Shown: positions 48,916-58,347, counted from the stretch's first letter. The stretch is DNA of 64,000 nucleotides from Bacteroidia bacterium (GCA_965216465.1 CBDCFW010000006.1:160001-224000), one strand, 5' to 3'. A program made the numbers and translations. Notes: generated by a model from the sequence alone, not told the origin.

Positions 48916-48923
48916 TAATTTTG
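48916..48923 (+). promoter_or_regulatory. -7 element heading metal sub-operon 1
   Basis: TAATTTTG. Confidence 0.6.
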
Positions 48924-48929
48924 TCACTT

Positions 48930-49361
48930 CTGAAAAACAGGTCTGAACATATTAAGTCATTGATAGCTGGTGCCTTTGCATTAGTTGTTTTGTTCAGTAG
49001 TTTTGGAATGAGCTTTGGTTTTCATTTATGTAAGAATGAAATCAAAGACTTTAGTTTCTTAGGAAACGTTGAAGAATGTTCAAGCGACGGAATTTCATGT
49101 CAGGAAGAACCTATTCCTCTAAACTCAATTACTAGGACCCCATGTTGTCAAAATCAAAATATATACAGTCAATCTGTATTTTTTGATGATGCTCCTGTAC
49201 TTCTCGTTTCAAATTCTGACTTTGAAATGAAGCCAGCATTTAGTTTGCTTGAATTGAATCCATCAATTAATGCAGCTTCAAAGTATGATTTCGACCTCAG
49301 ACCTCCTCCCGACATTTATGCTCCTGAGCTAAATATTCTTATTCAATCATTTCTAATTTAG
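48930..49361 (+). CDS. Cys-rich leader ORF 1 (HxC...CC...PP type); start uncertain (TTG 48921, CTG 48930 or TTG 48960)
   Basis: Signal anchor, FHLC, C..C, CC, RPPPD, QSFLI-stop. Confidence 0.8.
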   Translation: MKNRSEHIKSLIAGAFALVVLFSSFGMSFGFHLCKNEIKDFSFLGNVEECSSDGISCQEEPIPLNSITRTPCCQNQNIYSQSVFFDDAPVLLVSNSDFEMKPAFSLLELNPSINAASKYDFDLRPPPDIYAPELNILIQSFLI

Positions 49362-49425
49362 GATTACTAGTGACCTAGTTTAATGACCATGCTATGTTTG
49401 GTCAAGTTATTATATAATCCAAATT
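49355..49425 (+). promoter_or_regulatory. Predicted branched RNA structure linking the leader ORF 1 stop to the next initiation region
   Basis: AATTT(A)GGATTA pairs with TAATCCAAATT; inner CTAG/CTAG and TGACCA/TGGTCA hairpins. Confidence 0.6.
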
Positions 49426-49428
49426 GAA

Positions 49429-49650
49429 ATGAAAAAAAACATATTAATCTTAGTAATAATCGCATTTGCAGGAATATCGTATACAGCCTGCAGTTCAAAT
49501 CAAGAAAAAGAAGTTGACCGTACAGGCGTAGAATACACCTCGTCTTACATCTGCCCCATGCACTGTGAGGGTAGCGGAAGTGAGCACCCTGGCAACTGTC
49601 CTGATTGTGGAATGAAATATGTTGAAAATCCCGATAGCACTTCACATTGA
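49429..49650 (+). CDS. Heavy-metal-binding domain lipoprotein
   Basis: Lipobox YTAC; YICPMHCEG...PGNCPDCGM. Confidence 0.88.
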   Translation: MKKNILILVIIAFAGISYTACSSNQEKEVDRTGVEYTSSYICPMHCEGSGSEHPGNCPDCGMKYVENPDSTSH

Positions 49651-50660
49651 AATGTAGGACACACATATCGATTCTAATTACATGCATAATACTGCTCTCT
49701 GCATGCGAACATGATCCTGCTTTGGATATAAACAGCAAGCTTTTTGATACTCCTGACCACTTTGCTCCTATGAAGTTTCCTGAAGATAACGCGTATACTT
49801 CAGACCGTTGGGAGCTAGGGAAAATGCTATTTTTTGACAATCGATTGTCAAAAGACTCAACTTTGAACTGCGGGAGCTGTCATAAACCGGAATTATCATT
49901 CAGCGATGATGTGGCTTTTAGCCCGGGTGTTGAAAACAGGCCTGGTGTTCGTAACTCTCCGAGTCTTGCAAACATTGGATACCACCCATATTTTACCCGC
50001 GAGGGTGGTGTAGCAACACTCGAAATGCAAGTACTAGTACCCGTGCAAGAGCACAACGAATTTGACTTCAACATAGTTGAGATAGAAAAACGACTTTCGT
50101 CTGATTCTGCCTATCAACAAAAAAGTAGAAAAGCGTATAACCGTAATTTAGATTACTATGTAATTACGCGAGCCATATCAAATTTTGAACGTAGCTTAAT
50201 CAGTGCATCAAGTACTTACGACCAATTCTTAACAGACGACCTGACATTAACTGGTGAAGAAATCGCTGGCATGGACTTATTTTTTAGCTCCAAAACCAAC
50301 TGTTCATCATGTCACAGTGGATTTAATTTTACAAACTACAACTTCACGAATAATGGCCTTTATAATGACTATAACGATGAAGGCAGAAAACGTCTTACCG
50401 GATTAGACAAAGATGACGCAGTCTTTAAAGTGCCAAGCTTACGCAACGTTGAGCTAACCGCTCCTTACATGCACGATGGGTCACTACCTTCACTTGAAGC
50501 GGTAATTAATCATTATAATTCTGGAGGGATGAGTCATGCAAACAAACATGAATTGATAAAACCTCTTCACTTAACACAAAAAGAACAAGAACAGCTGATC
50601 GCATTCTTAAAAACATTAACAGATCATAAATTTATTAATAATCCAATATTTAAACCATGA
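49647..50660 (+). CDS. Di-heme cytochrome c peroxidase family lipoprotein (MbnH/MauG-like), paralog 1
   Basis: Lipobox LSAC; CGSCH, CSSCH; FKVPSLRNV..TAPYMHDG. Confidence 0.9.
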   Translation: MKCRTHISILITCIILLSACEHDPALDINSKLFDTPDHFAPMKFPEDNAYTSDRWELGKMLFFDNRLSKDSTLNCGSCHKPELSFSDDVAFSPGVENRPGVRNSPSLANIGYHPYFTREGGVATLEMQVLVPVQEHNEFDFNIVEIEKRLSSDSAYQQKSRKAYNRNLDYYVITRAISNFERSLISASSTYDQFLTDDLTLTGEEIAGMDLFFSSKTNCSSCHSGFNFTNYNFTNNGLYNDYNDEGRKRLTGLDKDDAVFKVPSLRNVELTAPYMHDGSLPSLEAVINHYNSGGMSHANKHELIKPLHLTQKEQEQLIAFLKTLTDHKFINNPIFKP

Positions 50661-51622
50661 AAAAAATCACAACAAAAATGCTTTTTGCGCTCGCATTAAG
50701 CCTAATTCTGGGAGCTCCTACTCAAGCTCAAACCAATATAAAATTAAAAGTGAATCACTTACTGGGATCCGAAGACTTTGGCTTCCAAAAAATAGCAAAA
50801 AATGATATAGGCAATGAATTCGTAGCCCTACGACTTGAATATTACATTTCTGGCATCACTTTGATTCATGATGGAGGACAAGAAACAACCTTGAACACTT
50901 ATATACTTCAAGATGCAGCCGATGACGACACTGTATCAATAGGTTCAGCAAATATTTCTTCTTTAGAATCTCTTAGCTTTTTCATCGGAGTTGATAAAAC
51001 AAACAATCATGCAGACCCATCAAAGTGGCCATCAAGCCATGCTTTGGCTCCAAAATCTCCATCAATGCACTGGGGTTGGGCTTCGGGCTACCGTTTTGTT
51101 GCTCTTGAAGGTGCTACAGGTGCCAACATGAACAACAAATTTGCAATTCACGCTTTAGGTGATAAAAACTATTTCGAAATGAACATTCCTACCACAGGTG
51201 AAATGATAAATAACAATTTAGTCATTGTATTGAATGCAGATTACACCAAATTGCTTTCTCAAATTAATTTGTCAACTGGCGTATTTAATCATGGAGAAGA
51301 TGATGAAGCGGCTGAATTACTTAGAAACTTCCAAACTAAGGTATTTACAAATATGTCAGGAGAAGGAAACACACTAAGTGTTGAACCTGTCAAAATCACT
51401 AATGCTTTTAGCATCAATCCAAATCCTAGCCATGGAAACTTCAATATTCAAGTTTTAGATTCTCGCTTGCTTAACGCAGAAGTTGAAATCAGAGATCTAA
51501 CTGGCAGAATAGTTTCTGAAAACACCTATTTAAACAATCTTCCTACACTTTCTGCAGGGGTGTATCTTGTAGCTGTTAAGAGTGAAAATATTATTAGCAC
51601 CCAAAAATTAATTGTGAACTAA
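50657..51622 (+). CDS. MbnP-like protein with type A T9SS C-terminal sorting domain
   Basis: Signal peptide; L.YYIS, F.IGVD...NH.DP, MHWGWASGYRF..LEG; CTD NPNPS...DLTGR...GVY...KLIVN. Confidence 0.85.
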   Translation: MKKITTKMLFALALSLILGAPTQAQTNIKLKVNHLLGSEDFGFQKIAKNDIGNEFVALRLEYYISGITLIHDGGQETTLNTYILQDAADDDTVSIGSANISSLESLSFFIGVDKTNNHADPSKWPSSHALAPKSPSMHWGWASGYRFVALEGATGANMNNKFAIHALGDKNYFEMNIPTTGEMINNNLVIVLNADYTKLLSQINLSTGVFNHGEDDEAAELLRNFQTKVFTNMSGEGNTLSVEPVKITNAFSINPNPSHGNFNIQVLDSRLLNAEVEIRDLTGRIVSENTYLNNLPTLSAGVYLVAVKSENIISTQKLIVN

Positions 51623-51623
51623 T

Positions 51624-52709
51624 ATGAAAGTAAGAATATTATCAATTATCCTAGCACTTATTGCTATCGGAATTTGGAGTTGCAAAGACGACGAACCTGC
51701 TGAAGCTATCGTTCACGATACAACCCCATACGAGTTAGATTATGGAAGCTTTCTTCCACCATCCATTGCTGAAGACAACCCACTAACGATACAAGGGGTT
51801 AAACTAGGTCGAATGCTATTTCACGAGAAGATGTTATCGAAAGATGAGTCGCAATCCTGTGCAACATGTCACATTCAAGAATTTGCGTTTAGTGACACTG
51901 CAACGCTGTCTATTGGAGTTCAAGGTCTTCCTGGTAAGCGACAGGCTATGGCTGTCTTTAATATGGCATGGAATATCAATGAATTCTTTTGGGATGGCAG
52001 AGCTCACCTTCTGCGTGACCAATCATTACTCCCCATACAAGACGAACTTGAGATGGATGAAACATTAGATGGGGTAATCGCAAAACTGAATGGTAGCCAG
52101 ATGTATAAAGACCAATTTATGCGTGCTTTTGGAAGTGAGGAAATTACTTCAGAGAAAATGTCACTTGCCATGGAGCAGTTTATGAATTCTATCGTATCAA
52201 CTAATTCAAGGTACGACGAGTTCTTAGAAGATTCTGCGGTCTTTACTGCAAGCGAGAAGAGAGGTCATGATTTATTTTTCCAAGAATACAATGAATTTTT
52301 TCCTGATGAAAGTGGTGCAGATTGTGCTCATTGTCATTCTGGTTTAAATTTTGAGAACGACGAATACATGAATAATGGTCTAGATGCAGGAGCTGATCAA
52401 ACTGATATTGGCAGAGAAAGCGTAACTTCCAATGCTCTCGATAAGGCTAAGTTTAAAGTTACCTCACTTAGAAATATTGAAGTAACAGCACCTTATATGC
52501 ACGATGGTCGATTTAAAACTTTAGAAGAAGTTGTAGAACACTACAATTCTGGTCTTAAAGGTTCTGCATCATTAGATCCAGCACTTGAAGCAACACGGGC
52601 AACTGGACTCATGCTAACTGAGCAAGACAAGGCCGATTTAGTGGCGTTTCTTAAAACTTTGACAGACCAATCATTGTTAAATAATAATAATTACACTGAT
52701 CCGTTTTAA
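51624..52709 (+). CDS. Di-heme cytochrome c peroxidase family lipoprotein (MbnH/MauG-like), paralog 2
   Basis: Lipobox IWSC; CATCH, FFWDGRA, CAHCH, TAPYMHDG. Confidence 0.92.
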   Translation: MKVRILSIILALIAIGIWSCKDDEPAEAIVHDTTPYELDYGSFLPPSIAEDNPLTIQGVKLGRMLFHEKMLSKDESQSCATCHIQEFAFSDTATLSIGVQGLPGKRQAMAVFNMAWNINEFFWDGRAHLLRDQSLLPIQDELEMDETLDGVIAKLNGSQMYKDQFMRAFGSEEITSEKMSLAMEQFMNSIVSTNSRYDEFLEDSAVFTASEKRGHDLFFQEYNEFFPDESGADCAHCHSGLNFENDEYMNNGLDAGADQTDIGRESVTSNALDKAKFKVTSLRNIEVTAPYMHDGRFKTLEEVVEHYNSGLKGSASLDPALEATRATGLMLTEQDKADLVAFLKTLTDQSLLNNNNYTDPF

Positions 52710-52714
52710 ATTTG
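52707..52714 (+). promoter_or_regulatory. -7 element heading metal sub-operon 2
   Basis: TAAATTTG overlapping the upstream stop codon, 7 nt before ATG 52722. Confidence 0.6.
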
Positions 52715-52721
52715 CAGTTCA

Positions 52722-53102
52722 ATGAGCAAGGTTTTATCCATATTGTTAAGCTTTTTATTCTTGATCACATCTACTGGTGTTCATCTTGATTTCGCTTATT
52801 GCGGAGATGAGCTGATGCATATTGAATTCTCGCACAGCGATGATATGCAAGAGTCTTGCTGTTTGGCAGATACGCAATATGACTGCTGTGAAACACAAGA
52901 GATTGTTCAAGACCCTCAATTGTTGGACTATATCCCGGTTTCTTCATTTGAGTTTGGATCTGTTCCTTTTGCTATTCTTGATTACCAAGACGTCAGTGTT
53001 AATGTCTTATCAGCTCAAGAGATTTCTCTTGATCATCTACCTAGACCACCTGACTTAGTTCAGGAACACTCCGCTCCTTTCTTGCAACGTTTTATTTGTT
53101 AG
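52722..53102 (+). CDS. Cys-rich leader ORF 2 (xYC...CC...CC...PP type)
   Basis: Signal anchor, FAYC, SCC, DCC, PRPPD, QRFIC-stop. Confidence 0.82.
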   Translation: MSKVLSILLSFLFLITSTGVHLDFAYCGDELMHIEFSHSDDMQESCCLADTQYDCCETQEIVQDPQLLDYIPVSSFEFGSVPFAILDYQDVSVNVLSAQEISLDHLPRPPDLVQEHSAPFLQRFIC

Positions 53103-53147
53103 TACCTGATTACTGCATTGGCTTTAATCATACATTAACAAATAAAA
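53090..53147 (+). promoter_or_regulatory. RNA hairpin linking the leader ORF 2 stop to the TonB-receptor initiation region
   Basis: Perfect 12-bp inverted repeat TTTTATTTGTTA / TAACAAATAAAA plus inner GTA..TGATTA / TAATCA.TAC. Confidence 0.72.
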
Positions 53148-53153
53148 AAACAC

Positions 53154-55406
53154 TTGAAAAAAATATTAATATTCATGGTTGTTACGCTCGTAAGCGTAGT
53201 AACCGTTGCACAAGACCAACATAAATATGTAAACGGTGTTGTGTTATCGATTGATGGAGATCAAAAAACTCCTATTCCAGGTGCGTTCGTACGCTGGATA
53301 GACAAGAAAGCAGGAGTATTTACCAACGACCAAGGTAAATTCTCAATTATGCACATGGGTGAAAGCCCTTCTTTAGTTGTATCGTATGTATCATTTAAAT
53401 CTGATACTATTGCGATTGATGACATTTCAAAACAATACACTGTTATCCTTCAGGATGAAACTGAAATTGGTCCAGCAATTGTGCTTGGAAGAAGAATTAG
53501 TTACGGACTTTCTCGGTTAAGCCCACGAACAACTGTTCTTTTAGGTGAAAGAGAATTTCAAAAGGCAGCATGTTGTAACCTTTCTGAAAGCTTTGAAAAT
53601 GCCCCTGCAATTGATGTAAGCTTTTCGGATGCTGTAACTGGTACTAAGCAGATTAAGATGCTTGGGTTAGATGGTTTTTATACCTTAATCGGAAGAGAAT
53701 ACATGCCCGCAGTTAGAACGTTAAACTCCTATTACGGCTTAAGTCTGATTCCTGCAGCGTGGGTTGAAGGTATTCAAATCACAAAAGGAGCAGGAAGTGT
53801 TGTAAACGGACATGAAAGCATGGCTGGACAAATCAATATTGAAATGAAAAAGCCATTCGGAAACACCAATTTCTTGCTCGACCAATTTGTTTCGCAGGGA
53901 GGAAGAGCCGAAACAGACTTTGTGTACCGAAAAGACCTAAATAAGCATTTAGCTACTTCAATTCTTGCTCGATACTCTTTTCAGCAAATTGAAAACGACA
54001 GAAACAACGATGGTTTCTTAGATATGCCAAAAGGAAATCAGTTTCAAATCATGAACAGATGGCAATTCGCAACTGACAACGGATTTGAAGGTATTGCAAC
54101 TGTTTCATACAATCAAGATGAGAAACTAGCCGGCCAGAAAGAGTTTTACCACGAAAACGACAGTTCATATGGCGTAGAACTCAACACTAAACAATTTGAT
54201 GCAATTGCTAAGATTGGTAAGACCTTTAAAAACAAACCACTTACAAGTCTAGGTAGCCAGTTTTCATTTAATAAAACCTTGTTTGATGGAAATTATGGTA
54301 GTCGATTTAATCCTAACGAGTATCGTGGAGAGTCCTCAACCTTTTACATGAACTTGTTGTATCAGTCGATCATCAAAAACAGCTTTCATCAGTTTCAAAC
54401 AGGTATATCGTTAACTTCAGATCAAATTGAAGAATCTTACCAAGATTTTCGTTTTTCAAGAACAGAAACAGTTCCAGGGGCATTTTTTGAATATACCTAC
54501 AAACCAAAAGAAACGTTTAGCTTGGTTGGAGGAATTCGGACCGATTACAACTTATTATATGGTTGGTCTGTAACACCTCGTATTCATTCAAAATACAGAT
54601 TTAACAAGGAGAAAACTGTGATTCGGGTATCAACAGGAATGGGACGAAGAACTTCAAATCCATTGGCTCAAAGTCAACAGATTTTCACCAGTAGCAGAAA
54701 CATCAATTTCTCTATATCTGATATAAATCTACCCTACGGACTTGAACAAGAAGTTTCGCTAAACTCTGGATTAAGCTTCGAACACGATTTCCATCTGACC
54801 TATATGCCCGCTACCATAGGCCTTGATTACTTCAATACTACATTCTTTAATGAAGTAGTGGTTGACCGTGAAGTGCCAGGCGAGGCCAGCTTCTACAACA
54901 TGAAGAATGGAACGCGTGCAAATAGTTTTCAAACTCAACTCGATTTAAAACCTGCACGAAGAACTGAAGTTCGACTAGCTTATAGAATGTTTGATGTTCA
55001 AACAAAATATAACAACCTGGGTTATCTAGCTAAACCTTTTATTTCAAAGCATCGTTCTTTCATTAATGTAACACAAAGAACGCGTTCTGGGTGGCAGTTT
55101 AGCAGCACAGGAACTTGGTACGGTCCTCAACGAATAGCTGGCAGCTATGAGCAAGCAGGAGACAATAAAATTGTTCAGAACGAATCTCCAAGCTTTGTTC
55201 TGGTAAATGCTCAAGTGAGTAAGACCATTAAAAAACAATTTGAAATCTATACCGGAGTTGAGAATATGTTAGACTACAGACAAGACGATCCTATACAGGA
55301 TGCTGTTGATCCATTTGGATCAAATTTCGATGCAGGGTTAGTCTGGGGACCTGTCTTTGGCCGAATGATTTATGGTGGCTTTAGATGGAGAATTCATGGA
55401 GAATAA
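53154..55406 (+). CDS. TonB-dependent receptor (putative metal transporter)
   Basis: Signal peptide, carboxypeptidase-regulatory-like N-domain, plug KAACCNLSESFE...I.KGAGSV.NG.ES..GQIN, C-terminal WGP.FGR..Y.G.R. Confidence 0.92.
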   Translation: MKKILIFMVVTLVSVVTVAQDQHKYVNGVVLSIDGDQKTPIPGAFVRWIDKKAGVFTNDQGKFSIMHMGESPSLVVSYVSFKSDTIAIDDISKQYTVILQDETEIGPAIVLGRRISYGLSRLSPRTTVLLGEREFQKAACCNLSESFENAPAIDVSFSDAVTGTKQIKMLGLDGFYTLIGREYMPAVRTLNSYYGLSLIPAAWVEGIQITKGAGSVVNGHESMAGQINIEMKKPFGNTNFLLDQFVSQGGRAETDFVYRKDLNKHLATSILARYSFQQIENDRNNDGFLDMPKGNQFQIMNRWQFATDNGFEGIATVSYNQDEKLAGQKEFYHENDSSYGVELNTKQFDAIAKIGKTFKNKPLTSLGSQFSFNKTLFDGNYGSRFNPNEYRGESSTFYMNLLYQSIIKNSFHQFQTGISLTSDQIEESYQDFRFSRTETVPGAFFEYTYKPKETFSLVGGIRTDYNLLYGWSVTPRIHSKYRFNKEKTVIRVSTGMGRRTSNPLAQSQQIFTSSRNINFSISDINLPYGLEQEVSLNSGLSFEHDFHLTYMPATIGLDYFNTTFFNEVVVDREVPGEASFYNMKNGTRANSFQTQLDLKPARRTEVRLAYRMFDVQTKYNNLGYLAKPFISKHRSFINVTQRTRSGWQFSSTGTWYGPQRIAGSYEQAGDNKIVQNESPSFVLVNAQVSKTIKKQFEIYTGVENMLDYRQDDPIQDAVDPFGSNFDAGLVWGPVFGRMIYGGFRWRIHGE

Positions 55407-55408
55407 AA

Positions 55409-56119
55409 ATGGAAAAGATTCAATTTAATATATCAGGAATTTCGTGCATGTCTTGTGTAAGCAAGCTTGAAAAAGCCTTTTATGGCAATGCCAACATTAA
55501 GCAAGTTGCGATTGACCAAGAATCTGGAAACACAAACTTACAATTTGAGGGTGAGCTAAATACTGATGAAATAGAATCGATAATAAAAAGTGCTGGCGAC
55601 TACGCATATCATGCAACAGAAGTTGAAGAGAAACGGTCTAGTAAATGGGTAACATACCGGCCGTTAATTTTAATCGTTGGCTACCTATTATTGGTTACGT
55701 TAACATTAGAATTTAGCTCGGGAATGTTCTTAATGGAAACCTGGATGGCAAACTTTATGGCAGGTTTCTTTATTGTTTTTTCGTTCTTTAAATTTTTAGA
55801 TTTAGGTGGATTTGCAAAAGCCTACAGAAGCTATGACATCATAGCTAAAAAAGTAAAATTTTATGGTTATGCATTTCCATTTGTTGAGTTAGCATTGGGT
55901 ATCTCATACCTTTTGTTTTCTGACTTAGCTATAACACATCTCATTACAGCAATTATTATGTTTGTAAGTCTCGTAGGTGTGGTTAATTCAGTGCTCAACA
56001 AATCTGAAATTCAGTGTGCTTGTTTAGGCACGGTCTTCAACTTGCCCATGAGTTATGTAACCATAATCGAAGACACCGTAATGCTTGTTATGGCACTATT
56101 TATGTACTTTAGAATATAG
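55409..56119 (+). CDS. HMA domain fused to a MauE/DoxX-like membrane domain
   Basis: GISCMSC; Y.PL..I, FM.GFF.VFSFFK, YD, CACLG, IIED. Confidence 0.87.
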   Translation: MEKIQFNISGISCMSCVSKLEKAFYGNANIKQVAIDQESGNTNLQFEGELNTDEIESIIKSAGDYAYHATEVEEKRSSKWVTYRPLILIVGYLLLVTLTLEFSSGMFLMETWMANFMAGFFIVFSFFKFLDLGGFAKAYRSYDIIAKKVKFYGYAFPFVELALGISYLLFSDLAITHLITAIIMFVSLVGVVNSVLNKSEIQCACLGTVFNLPMSYVTIIEDTVMLVMALFMYFRI

Positions 56120-56123
56120 ACAC

Positions 56124-56876
56124 GTGAAAAAAATATTAATAATAACAACAGTACTTGCATTCTTTGCATCATCGTGCGGGCCAGAAACTGTAGATCCTCC
56201 AGTTGAACCGCAGGAAGTTCAAGAAATGACGCTAAACTTCGCTCCAAAATTTGATGGAGGAAGTTTTGAGCTGCTTTCTAGCACTTACACTTTAGCCAGT
56301 GGCGAAGAGGTAGAATTCAAACGATTTGCGGCATTGTTTAGCAACTTTTATCTGATTAATGAAGATGGGTCGAAACTGATGCTTGACGACCAATACGCTT
56401 TTCTAAACCTTAATAAAAATCAGATGTCAGTAACACTGACTGAGATTCCAAAAGGAAATTATAAAGGTGTTGGATTTATGTACGGATTGGATTCAGCAAT
56501 CAATCATGGTCCGACTAACCAATATCCTATCGACCATCCATTAAACACATTCAACAATTCGTTGTATTGGGATTGGGCAGGCGGATACATATTCTCAGCC
56601 ATCGAAGGAGGAGTAGCAAATTCTAATGAAAAATTTGTGTTTCACTTGGCAGGAAGCATGAATACAATCAATTATGAGCTTCCTATGGTCTTTACTAAAG
56701 ACAATAAAGCACTTCAAGCAGAGATTGATTTGCATATGGATGAAATCTTCAAGAACCCTGAGGTTTATAGCCTTGAGAATGACGGAACGAGTGTGCACAA
56801 TGCCCTTGATGCCGTGACCACAAAGTTAATTGGCAACATGGGTGATATATTTAGTTTAATGAGTGTTTCAGAATGA
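56124..56876 (+). CDS. MbnP-like lipoprotein
   Basis: GTG start, lipobox ASSC; G.YKG..F..GLD...NH, LYWDWAGGYIF..IEG, FHL. Confidence 0.85.
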   Translation: MKKILIITTVLAFFASSCGPETVDPPVEPQEVQEMTLNFAPKFDGGSFELLSSTYTLASGEEVEFKRFAALFSNFYLINEDGSKLMLDDQYAFLNLNKNQMSVTLTEIPKGNYKGVGFMYGLDSAINHGPTNQYPIDHPLNTFNNSLYWDWAGGYIFSAIEGGVANSNEKFVFHLAGSMNTINYELPMVFTKDNKALQAEIDLHMDEIFKNPEVYSLENDGTSVHNALDAVTTKLIGNMGDIFSLMSVSE

Positions 56877-57982
56877 AGCTAGGAAAGTATTCCATATTAC
56901 TCTTAATAGTTCTGGGAATCTGGGCTTGTAAGGATGTTGTAAACGAACTTCCAGATACACCGTTCGAAACAACGCCCTATAGCATTGAAATTCCTGGAGG
57001 ACTATTTAAAGCAAGTTTTCCCCCTGATAATAGACCTACTGAGGAAGGTGTTTATCTCGGGAGGATGCTGTTCTACGATCCAATTTTGAGTGCTGATAGC
57101 ACCCAGAGCTGTGCGTCTTGTCACAATCAAGAATTTGCATTTACAGACAATGAGAAGCAGTTTAGCGAAGGAATTAGAGGACTCGAAGGCAAACGAAACT
57201 CAATGCCTATTTTTAATCTAATGTGGCATATGGATGGTTTCTTTTGGGATGGACGGGCTGAGTTGTTAAGACATCAATCTTTGCTTCCAATTCAAGATCC
57301 TTTGGAAATGGATGAAACTTTGGGCAACATGCTGGTTAAGCTTAACGCTTCCGATATGTACAAAGAGCACTTTAAGAAAGCTTTTAACATCGACGAAATT
57401 GATGAAGAACATGTGAGCATGGCCTTAGAGCAATTCATGATGATTATCATTAGCGGTGATTCTAAGTTTGATCGCGTAAACGCTGGTCTCGAAACATTAA
57501 CTGGTCAAGAAGAGGTAGGGAGAATTGTTTTTGGAGAAGAAGCTATTCCTCTAAAACTAGAGCCAGATCCAGATAATCCACAAAACTTTGGGGCTGATTG
57601 CTTCCATTGCCATGGCAACCCGTTGTTCATGCGCCGCGAGTTTGGAAATAATGGACTCGATTCTGTGCTTACAGACAAAGGTTTAGGAGATGTAACCGGC
57701 TTGGCTACCGACGATGGCAAATTCAAGACTCCTAGCTTAAGAAATATCGAAAAAACAGCTCCATATATGCATGATGGACGATTTAATACGTTAGAAGAAG
57801 TAGTGGAGTTTTATTTGAATGGAGCACACGCTAACTCTCCAAACATAGACCCCAACATGCATGCTCTTCAAGATTCCGTATATTTGAGCCCTGAACATAA
57901 AGCGGCTTTAATTGCGTTCTTAAAGACATTAACAGACGACAATTATTTAACAAACCCTGAATATTCAAACCCTTTTAAATAA
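56873..57982 (+). CDS. Di-heme cytochrome c peroxidase family lipoprotein (MbnH/MauG-like), paralog 3
   Basis: Lipobox IWAC; CASCH, FFWDGRA, CFHCH, TAPYMHDG. Confidence 0.92.
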   Translation: MKLGKYSILLLIVLGIWACKDVVNELPDTPFETTPYSIEIPGGLFKASFPPDNRPTEEGVYLGRMLFYDPILSADSTQSCASCHNQEFAFTDNEKQFSEGIRGLEGKRNSMPIFNLMWHMDGFFWDGRAELLRHQSLLPIQDPLEMDETLGNMLVKLNASDMYKEHFKKAFNIDEIDEEHVSMALEQFMMIIISGDSKFDRVNAGLETLTGQEEVGRIVFGEEAIPLKLEPDPDNPQNFGADCFHCHGNPLFMRREFGNNGLDSVLTDKGLGDVTGLATDDGKFKTPSLRNIEKTAPYMHDGRFNTLEEVVEFYLNGAHANSPNIDPNMHALQDSVYLSPEHKAALIAFLKTLTDDNYLTNPEYSNPFK

Positions 57983-57990
57983 AAGAAATT

Positions 57991-58347
57991 ATGAAAAAAA
58001 TACTTTTAGCACTATTAATGGTAAGTACAGTAGCTGTATTTGCTAAATCCGTGACCAAAAAAATAGAGGTTAAAGGAGAATGCGACATGTGCAAAGAAAA
58101 AATTGAAGCAGCTTTAGACATTCCTGGTGTATCATTTGCCGAATGGGATATTGAATCTAAAATGCTAACTGTTCGCTATAACGACAAAAAAGTAACTGAA
58201 GATCAAATTCATACTGTAATGTCGGAACTTGGTTATGCTACCAGTAAAATGGCGGCAAATAAAGAGGCACAAAACAAGTTAGATGACTGCTGTAAACCAC
58301 AAGAGAAAAAAGGCTGTTGTTCGAGTAAGAGCAGCTGTAAAAAATAA
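57991..58347 (+). CDS. Periplasmic HMA/CopZ-like metal chaperone with Cys-rich tail
   Basis: Signal peptide; GECDMCK..IE; L..CC...CC....C. Confidence 0.88.
   Translation: MKKILLALLMVSTVAVFAKSVTKKIEVKGECDMCKEKIEAALDIPGVSFAEWDIESKMLTVRYNDKKVTEDQIHTVMSELGYATSKMAANKEAQNKLDDCCKPQEKKGCCSSKSSCKK

Follow-up and report, generated by a model that had tools for sequence, protein, structure and literature searches.

What are two small open reading frames (ORFs) doing at the head of two copper gene blocks? The question is raised by a 64,000-nucleotide (nt) stretch of DNA from a Bacteroidia bacterium (GCA_965216465.1 CBDCFW010000006.1:160001-224000), hereafter the window, within which all coordinates are counted. 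Two copper-related gene blocks lie next to each other there, each headed by one small ORF on the + strand, here called ORF A and ORF B. Their sequences place both in a family, HYC_CC_PP/DUF8199, that is named but uncharacterised. We propose that they are not, or not only, structural proteins, and we give a probability of about 0.6 to their being cis-acting, co-translationally exported metal-sensing leaders, by analogy with the DUF2946 proteins CutF and CruR. A mechanism of that kind fits because putatively exported, cysteine-bearing ORFs head metal operons in this family with a conserved tail, a distance of 72 residues between a cysteine pair and the stop, and a co-evolving RNA helix between that stop and the next start.

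The helix between stop and start

An earlier note on this DNA had drawn one stem at each leader's end, pairing 49355-66 with 49415-25 behind ORF A and, perfectly over 12 bp, 53090-101 with 53136-47 behind ORF B. Both stems were recovered by folding, each contained in a longer closing helix (table 1). The fold of 49340-49440 has a minimum free energy (MFE) of -25.0 kcal/mol (z -4.76) and that of 53075-53165 one of -20.7 kcal/mol (z -5.00); in neither case was any of 200 dinucleotide shuffles as stable. At the first junction, the downstream ATG (49429-31) is paired with a ‘CAU’ at 49348-50 inside the last codons of the leader. At the second, the helix comprises 14 bp including one G-U and is followed by six unpaired bases and then by TTG 53154, with weaker outer pairs (53078-81 with 53156-59) extending to the start codon. 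Both closing stems are almost wholly A-U, and neither intergenic region of the window holds a terminator-like site.

The family was then sampled at two depths. Set 1 comprises 91 loci from relatives at the order level (88 family ORFs), and set 2, which replicates it independently, 70 loci drawn from the phylum as a whole (71 family ORFs), i.e. 161 loci and 159 family ORFs in total. For pooled analyses, 153 ORFs were retained after removal of one whose C-terminus is not family-like (L027) and of five near-duplicates (L012, L039, L071, L073, L074); the labels L001-L173 designate the collected family loci, L002 being ORF B. RNA measures in set 1 exclude six loci at a contig end or with a doubtful downstream start (L011, L033, L035, L041, L078, L083), one with no start within 260 nt (L026), and junctions shorter than 35 nt or longer than 200 nt; in set 2 they exclude three loci with no downstream ORF (L117, L164, L171) and three junctions above 200 nt. 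An extra search with a narrower alignment returned 12 loci, mostly already in the set.

Pairing was measured as the base pairs expected to form between a stop-proximal segment (-18..+15) and a start-proximal segment (-18..+2). At least five such pairs are expected in 46/77 order-level and 52/65 phylum-level junctions, against 9.2% of 400 control junctions, and at least nine in 40% and 71%, respectively, against 2.2% of controls. Since the registers of the arms differ between loci and the interiors are unalignable, co-evolution was assessed by alignment-free comparison of cognate with non-cognate arms, together with one helix set by hand. Cognate arms form the more stable duplexes both in 72 non-redundant loci (-7.77 versus -5.06 kcal/mol) and in 65 phylum-level loci (-9.96 versus -5.68 kcal/mol), and none of 10000 permutations was as good in either case; for 150 control junctions, cognate and non-cognate energies are -6.51 and -6.37 kcal/mol, and 2259 of 10000 permutations did as well. 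The arms thus vary in sequence and register from locus to locus, yet each fits its own partner. Conservation and covariation of the stems had been named beforehand as the test that could refute the proposal, and the outcome is in its favour: the stop-to-start helix recurs and its arms co-evolve.

In the MFE structures of 137 non-redundant junctions, the 5' arm extends, by medians, from -2 to +12 as counted from the stop, and 72 have a paired start codon. In 51, the stop codon itself is paired with a triplet near the start (UGA-UCA 28, UAA-UUA 9, UAG-CUA 4, G-U variants 10). The hand-set helix, of 10 bp, belongs to a receptor-linked subfamily of 11 sequences: 94% of its cells are paired, a value matched by none of 500 shuffles and by slid controls only to 30-55%, and five of the ten pairs have changed on both sides, including that of the middle stop-codon base (GC 6, AU 4).

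Two candidate elements were set aside. General masking of the start region as a special feature was rejected, its pairedness being no higher than in controls, and so was an intrinsic terminator as a common element: terminator-like hairpins occur in 29/137 family intergenic regions versus 53/400 controls, a mild enrichment, and the other 108 family regions have none. Separately, a small hairpin occupies the LLVLHQ/ILILHQ codons in the last 30 nt of five leaders (L005, L009, L013, L019, L021), as CUGGU...ACCAG or CUGAU...AUCAG, with one apparent compensatory change that leaves a synonymous His codon.

A peptide measured from its end

ORF A and ORF B share 24% identity, and each exceeds the curated cut-off (28 bits) of the HYC_CC_PP model NF047658, with 42.5 bits (E 8.5e-11) and 41.1 bits (E 2.3e-10), respectively; a search of the genome placed matches to this model at these two sites only. 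If the motif set is read from the family name rather than from a curators' description, the H-Y-C, CC and PP motifs appear as HLC, CC and PPP in ORF A and as AYC (the His being absent), two CC and PP in ORF B. The architecture given in the earlier note is indeed all there: a signal anchor, HLC or AYC, CC clusters, and a tail running from RPPPD to QSFLI and stop, or from RPPD to QRFIC and stop.

Across an alignment of 82 sequences, C27, C46, C47, C55 and C56 (ORF B numbering) are invariant or nearly so, as are H35, C37, C53, C75 and C76 in the group of ORF A. Family members carry a putative export signal or N-in transmembrane segment, a hydrophobic stretch after Lys/Arg that is modelled by AlphaFold2 (AF2) as a helix with a predicted local distance difference test score (pLDDT) of up to 95. 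For both ORFs, AF2 predicts a transmembrane helix and a small beta unit bearing the Cys motifs, followed by an unstructured half from CC to the end. In ORF A, the helix spans residues 3-27 and the beta unit 32-46, residues 84-146 being coil (pLDDT 39-57); in ORF B, modelled from the 82-sequence alignment, the helix spans 2-18 and the strands 20-27, 30-35 and 56-63, residues 64-126 being without secondary structure (pLDDT 56-69).

This half is nevertheless of nearly fixed length. From CC to the C-terminus, the 153 pooled members measure 73.0 +/- 2.1 residues (range 69-81), 139 of them falling within 70-75, whereas the distance from HxC to CC is far looser (35.1 +/- 6.4). When the same sequences are aligned from the right, the five final positions, read from -1 to -5, carry 2.9, 2.7, 2.8, 1.8 and 1.7 bits of information; PP (-16 to -18) and CC (-71 to -73) each carry approximately 1.0-1.6 bits, and the CC-PP linker of about 50-55 residues, which keeps its length and not its sequence, 0.3-0.8 bits. 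Constant in length and devoid of conserved sequence or fold, this linker fits a spacer measured along a nascent chain rather than a folded domain. The best-conserved part is the consensus tail Q-x-F-L-I-stop, which ends exactly at the stop; the last residue is Ile in 74/87 members of set 1 and 49/71 of set 2. Its codons are synonymously variable over the last five positions (all six Leu codons; Phe TTT 57, TTC 47; Gln CAG 33, CAA 25), which argues for selection beyond the RNA arm alone, at the level of the peptide.

The proline motif fared less well. Exactly 16 codons separate the last Pro of PP from the stop in ORF A and in ORF B, as the earlier note had emphasized; family-wide the distance is usually 15-17 residues, and it is 12 in the QYIFY subfamily. 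PP lies within the final 30 residues in 61/87 members of set 1 and 65/71 of set 2. It is not universal, being missing there from 26/87 and 6/71 members, about a fifth in all, and the last five residues are better conserved.

The C-terminal variant goes with the type of downstream gene. All six members of set 1 that end in Cys (L002, i.e. ORF B, and L075, L077, L079, L090, L091) precede TonB-dependent receptors, and a phylum-wide receptor-linked subfamily (L104-L113, L116, L120) terminates in QYIFY[AS] with PP 12 residues from the end; in these receptor-linked members, as in ORF B, the His of HxC is replaced. Among the 153 leaders, the stop codon is TGA in 77, TAG in 38 and TAA in 38, and the base after it is T in 87; TGA ends 258/1690 long ORFs of the window's genome, among which TAA stops are frequent, a figure not comparable with the former since the leaders come from different genomes.

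Promoters, neighbouring genes and distribution

The features of the two blocks are collected in table 1.

Table 1. Positions in the window of the two leader ORFs, their promoter boxes, predicted helices and the genes that follow.
Feature	Position	Strand	Remarks
-7 promoter box TAATTTTG	48916-48923	+	before ORF A; its TTG is the called ORF A start
ORF A, HYC_CC_PP family	48921-49361	+	146 aa (amino acids) from TTG 48921; 143 aa from CTG 48930
ORF A, H35-L-C37	49023-49031		
ORF A, C53			
ORF A, C75-C76	49143-49148		72 aa from C-terminus
ORF A, PPP	49302-49310		
ORF A, QSFLI	49344-49358		
ORF A, stop TAG	49359-49361		
5' arm, closing helix A	49347-49374	+	last four codons, stop and 13 nt after
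Inner hairpin, intergenic region A	49384-49404	+	by folding; not terminator-like
3' arm, closing helix A	49406-49432	+	-23..+4 of the downstream ATG; 49429-49431 paired
HMBD (heavy-metal-binding domain) lipoprotein	49429-49650	+	first gene after ORF A; Pfam HMBD 3e-08
MbnH-like di-haem peroxidase	49647-50660	+	ORF A block; family searches
MbnP with type IX secretion system (T9SS) sorting tail	50657-51622	+	ORF A block; family searches
Second MbnH-like gene	51624-52709	+	ORF A block; family searches
-7 promoter box TAAATTTG	52707-52714	+	7 nt before ORF B ATG
ORF B, HYC_CC_PP family	52722-53102	+	126 aa, ATG start
ORF B, A-Y-C27	52800-52802 (C)		
ORF B, C46-C47	52857-52862		
ORF B, C55-C56	52884-52889		72 aa from C-terminus
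ORF B, PP	53046-53051		
ORF B, QRFIC	53085-53099		
ORF B, stop TAG	53100-53102		
5' arm, closing helix B	53090-53103	+	final three and one-third codons, stop, next 1 nt
Inner hairpin, intergenic region B	53107-53130	+	by folding
3' arm, closing helix B	53134-53147	+	-20..-7 of TTG start 53154
TonB-dependent receptor (CarboxypepD_reg + Plug)	53154-55406	+	first gene after ORF B; TTG start 53154
HMA-MauE fusion	55385-56119	+	ORF B block
MbnP	56085-56876	+	ORF B block
MbnH-like gene	56873-57982	+	ORF B block
HMA protein	57991-58347	+	ORF B block

A -7 box stands before each of the two ORFs, as had been claimed. Within the whole window the motif is not over-represented (65 matches versus 76 expected), and a sigma-70 promoter scan was uninformative (12 found versus 15 expected). 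In the family, a TAHHTTTG box lies within 90 nt upstream of the transmembrane-coding segment in 95/147 members, and the first in-frame start follows the G of the box within 9 nt, typically at 4-9 nt, in 74/94 (of the 94, ATG 45, GTG 25, TTG 24). For Flavobacterium johnsoniae, transcription is described as starting 4-5 nt after this G, and 87% of mRNA leaders as longer than 10 nt (PMC6847099). Given that spacing and the closeness of the start codons to the box, the mRNAs of the family would be leaderless or nearly so; by the same analogy, a leader of about 3 nt is expected for ORF B. Where ORF A truly starts is uncertain. It is probably past the transcription start, predicted near 48928, beyond which there is no canonical start codon in frame; the candidates are CTG 48930 (6 nt past the box), ATT 48951 and TTG 48960. 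Elsewhere in the window, three called TTG starts (35615, 48921, 63687) coincide with the TTG of TANNTTTG boxes (35610-17, 48916-23, 63682-89), and these are probably promoter bases and not start codons. Two further boxes (40936-43, 46566-73) are followed by an ATG exactly 5 nt later, which suggests further leaderless genes in this genome.

Domain searches found no metalloregulator between 48.9 and 58.3 kb, which bears out the statement that the locus has no such gene; the PadR/PspC pair at 45.1-46.5 kb is part of another unit. The two blocks together hold two MbnP and three MbnH-like genes within 9 kb (49647-52709 and 56085-57982), and from the T9SS C-terminal sorting domain on one of the two MbnP, export to the cell surface would follow.

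Across 148 junctions of the family, the Pfam families found downstream are ACR_tran (CusA/CzcA-type RND, i.e. resistance-nodulation-division; 42), HMBD (31), Plug (22), HMA (17) and, more rarely, MbnP (4), NHL (4) and AraC (3). With at least five unrelated classes, these genes are too diverse for one dedicated protein partner. By eye, approximately 13 leaders (L025, L028, L031, L053, L056, L064, L068, L069, L071, L073, L074, L082, L089) precede signal-anchored proteins of 64-116 aa that are rich in Cys (CxC, CC runs) and have no Pfam match; the intergenic regions there measure 126-239 nt, and most lack the stop-to-start helix. Four leaders (L051, L072, L084, L086) are followed by a conserved 374-aa NHL/beta-propeller lipoprotein with no other copper link. 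Three others (L085, L121, which is a minus-strand copy, and L127) are followed by an AraC-type regulator that bears an HMA-like CxxC domain at its N-terminus, in which cases the leader would control a transcription factor.

The family is large. A profile of the 82 members retrieved 11466 representative proteins at E<=1e-3, and 6234 when E<=1e-10 was required, with matches extending to the last residue, and members are present in 34/61 close relatives, 54/121 genomes of the order and 98/401 sampled genomes of the phylum, Bacteroidota. Some taxonomic families possess it near-universally (19/21, 26/28, 11/12), others scarcely or not at all (0/86, 1/61). The same twin arrangement is found in two genomes of the same genus, the copies standing 3.8-3.9 kb apart. 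In a feature search of the ESM Atlas, ORF B adjoins clusters that are 100% Pfam DUF8199 (PF26622), with a score of 0.96 and 29/30 matches; the Pfam scan returned nothing for either ORF, the PF26622 model evidently lying outside the Pfam set scanned.

No link with DUF2946 (PF11162), the domain of CutF and CruR, was detected: neither ORF matches it at E<=0.01, it is not among the 25 families listed of the 34 found when the 82 members were scanned against Pfam at E<=1, and a six-frame search of the genome at E<=10 returned a single match, in an unrelated place, at 12 bits. The scan of the 82 members and a profile search of the Protein Data Bank gave noise only. Full-text literature search for HYC_CC_PP, NF047658, DUF8199 or PF26622 found no paper, and that for Bacteroidetes, copper and ‘arrest peptide’ one irrelevant match.

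Leaders, proteins or terminators

The reading that we favour would run as follows. Each leader ORF would be transcribed from its own -7-box promoter as a nearly leaderless mRNA, and its product inserted N-in through the signal anchor and exported while being translated. When the ribosome reaches the C-terminal peptide (hydrophobic-x-Q-x-F-L-I/C-stop), the invariant CC would stand about 72 residues behind the peptidyl-transferase centre and would just be emerging on the periplasmic side. There, CC and the membrane-adjacent H-x-C hairpin may pack together as a small unit, rich in Cys, with bound metal or disulfides, and the formation of this unit would alter the dwell time of the ribosome over the stop and the codons just before it. 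A ribosome at the stop would cover the 5' arm of the helix, whose 3' arm pairs with the next start region, so that dwell time would set the exposure of that start in an organism without Shine-Dalgarno recognition. The ribosomes of Bacteroidota are described as ignoring the Shine-Dalgarno sequence, initiation being tuned by mRNA structure (PMC6847099), for which reason pairing of the start-codon region would be a natural target. Efflux and uptake operons may be regulated with different polarity, just as CutF and CruR regulate theirs, and the receptor-specific termini hint at this. Export, metal binding by the Cys unit, ribosome arrest and its site (stop or PP), and polarity are what we infer. 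As conservation peaks at -1 to -5 and is moderate at PP, an event at termination is favoured over a pause at PP; such a pause, 48 nt upstream and beyond reach of the helix, is possible as an extra timing step.

Known leaders supply the analogy. CutF of Rhodobacter capsulatus is likewise a small exported protein placed first in a copper operon, with four exported Cys and a C-terminal Pro motif at a fixed distance; an intergenic stem-loop masks initiation of the next gene, cutO, and is thought to be melted by the ribosome at the end of the leader upon copper-induced stalling (10.1101/2022.11.11.516240; 10.1101/2025.02.05.636593). The differences are nonetheless numerous. HYC_CC_PP does not match the DUF2946 model; it has HxC...C...CC where CutF has CxxxC, and an uncleaved-looking signal anchor where the Sec signal of CutF can be cleaved off. 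Its PP lies 15-17 residues before the end, with a QxFLI terminus, whereas the PPP of CutF is at the very end; its ruler spans some 72 aa as far as the stop, or some 55 aa as far as PP, against 45 aa in CutF. Its helix masks the start codon and an A-rich region instead of a Shine-Dalgarno sequence, on an mRNA that is apparently near-leaderless.

CruR (Bp2923 of Bordetella pertussis) is also an upstream ORF whose product bears an export signal and, at conserved spacing, a Cys motif and a C-terminal arrest motif; it heads a TonB-dependent transporter operon, homologues of it stand before MbnPH-like genes as well, and the intergenic regions are usually long (PMC9426467). In its case, copper relieves the arrest and Rho terminates transcription before the transporter gene; CruR differs by a CXXC motif, RAPP three residues from the end, Rho-dependent termination and a dispensable export signal, and its homologues are mostly from Proteobacteria, none being reported there for Bacteroidota (PMC9426467). 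Its metal motif is 45 residues from the C-terminal motif, as against the 73.0 +/- 2.1 from CC to the end in HYC_CC_PP. SecM, MifM and VemP resemble the family in being exported or membrane-inserted and arrested at the C-terminus, the stalled ribosome opening a stem-loop that masks a start (10.1101/2025.02.05.636593). They monitor the export machinery and not metal, precede sec or yidC genes, and are unrelated in sequence. The termination-arrest leader TnaC, too, has conserved residues at a fixed distance from the stop at which the ribosome is held; it is cytoplasmic and much shorter, and a small molecule is sensed inside the ribosomal tunnel. Finally, CopL (Xanthomonas/Stenotrophomonas) and CzcI (Cupriavidus) are small ORFs before copper oxidase and czcCBA RND genes, respectively, both listed as ‘CutF-like’, and CopL acts only in cis (10.1101/2022.11.11.516240); both are proteobacterial and belong to other sequence clusters, and CzcI has no Pro motif.

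Of six testable features of the CutF/CruR class, five were found here: the export signal, the Cys/His motif, the spacing, the place at the head of copper operons and the structured intergenic region. The sixth, a C-terminal Pro motif near the end, is present in the proportions given above but at 15-17 (or 12) residues before it. A survey of 2022 gathered 5334 ‘CutF-like’ proteins by iterated jackhmmer and rule filters, 19% of them from Bacteroidota, and often found RND pumps and TonB-like proteins encoded nearby; its main text does not describe the Bacteroidota members, which may or may not be HYC_CC_PP proteins (10.1101/2022.11.11.516240). The existence of CutF-like leaders in Bacteroidota is thus probably in print at survey level. 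In the literature searched, we found none of the following: a link with HYC_CC_PP/DUF8199, the QxFLI-stop tail, the 72-residue ruler, the covarying stop-to-start helix, or the near-leaderless promoters.

Several points weigh against metal-sensing leaders. The analogy with CutF and CruR, as first put forward, fits the operon-leading place before copper genes and the constant peptide geometry, and is not supported where PP is missing and where the helix is absent by the criterion of at least five pairs (31/77 junctions in set 1, 13/65 in set 2); helix-less junctions mostly have long intergenic regions or small Cys-rich proteins downstream. The downstream start of each junction was set by a fixed heuristic that prefers A-rich upstream sequence, the 400 control junctions are co-directional, ORF-based calls from the window's genome only, and the loci come from related genomes and are not independent. 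The 10-bp subfamily helix was delimited by eye on the same 11 related sequences, and no consensus pairs emerged when RNAalifold was applied to the MAFFT alignments of two subfamilies. The start region was supposed in the earlier note to be concealed by the stop hairpin, of which only half holds: pairing between the two regions recurs, but the overall pairedness of the start region in set 1 equals that of controls (median ~0.52-0.53 versus 0.52, Mann-Whitney p 0.53), so that the start is not unusually ‘hidden’ and only its partner is unusual. As ORF B begins 12 nt past the preceding gene, it may also be an internal gene of a longer transcript. Finally, the N-terminal third of ORF B has a predicted fold (pLDDT 68-95) and the Cys are invariant, which leaves some probability to a stable metal-binding membrane protein.

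A further reading, which we hold tentatively and consider rather doubtful, is that of an independent, Bacteroidota-wide form of nascent-chain metal sensing, with arrest at the stop codon itself and force-gated release by the Cys-rich beta unit. Q-x-F-L-I would then lie in the tunnel beside the peptidyl-transferase centre and PP near the constriction, while the Cys-rich unit, exactly 72 residues back, would fold and bind metal or form disulfides on leaving the translocon. With stop and start codons directly paired, one terminating ribosome would unmask the next start and sit beside it, and efflux and uptake genes would be given opposite polarities by the subfamily-specific termini (I, C or QYIFY[AS]).

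That HYC_CC_PP is instead a stable, membrane-anchored periplasmic metal-binding protein, its helix a constitutive translational coupling with no nascent-chain sensing, appears unlikely. Coupling through a helix that an upstream ribosome opens is classical. The predicted transmembrane helix and three-stranded sheet with invariant Cys, of moderate to high model confidence, would suit such a protein, as would its conservation as a protein (synonymous variation; 11466 representatives) and a length of 126-190 aa, long for a leader peptide. Length is however no obstacle in DUF2946 proteins, which are of similar size (CruR, 145 aa) and of which CutF is undetectable in cells (10.1101/2022.11.11.516240). 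Moreover, the best-conserved residues are the last five, always ending at the stop, the linker that is conserved in length, variable in sequence and predicted unstructured is hard to explain for a folded protein, and the genes downstream represent at least five unrelated classes.

Transcriptional control in the manner of CruR, whereby a ribosome at the leader end blocks Rho loading or a terminator and the helix is part of a termination/antitermination device, seems improbable. Rho-dependent termination before a TonB-dependent transporter is indeed how CruR works (PMC9426467), ORF B precedes a TonB-dependent receptor, and terminator-like hairpins are mildly enriched in the family; yet both window junctions and most family junctions have no terminator-like site, and the co-evolving element is a pairing with the start codon region, needless for a pure termination device. 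Least of all do we believe that the hairpins are incidental (U-rich post-stop against A-rich pre-start sequence in an AT-rich genome) and the shared motifs due to paralogy, an explanation to which the nearly all-A-U stems and the well-paired control start regions (m1 0.52) lend something but which is largely refuted by the z-scores of -4.8 and -5.0, by the cognate arms winning twice, in independent sets, over non-cognate arms of equal composition with no such effect in controls, and by compensatory changes that include the stop codon.

To return to metal-sensing leaders, only two proteins, both DUF2946 members from Proteobacteria, have so far been shown to sense copper post-transcriptionally as exported nascent chains. 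Should the same hold for HYC_CC_PP/DUF8199, the principle would reach a second major phylum through an unrelated-looking family of more than 11000 representative clusters, and would account for the way in which many copper efflux, uptake and MbnPH clusters of Bacteroidota are regulated without a nearby metalloregulator. It would also be a clean natural case of start-codon masking for Shine-Dalgarno-blind ribosomes, and the 72-residue ruler would amount to a quantitative prediction on ribosome-translocon geometry. Should the more tentative reading, with arrest at the stop codon itself, be true, it would show how such ribosomes may couple and regulate translation on near-leaderless operon mRNAs.

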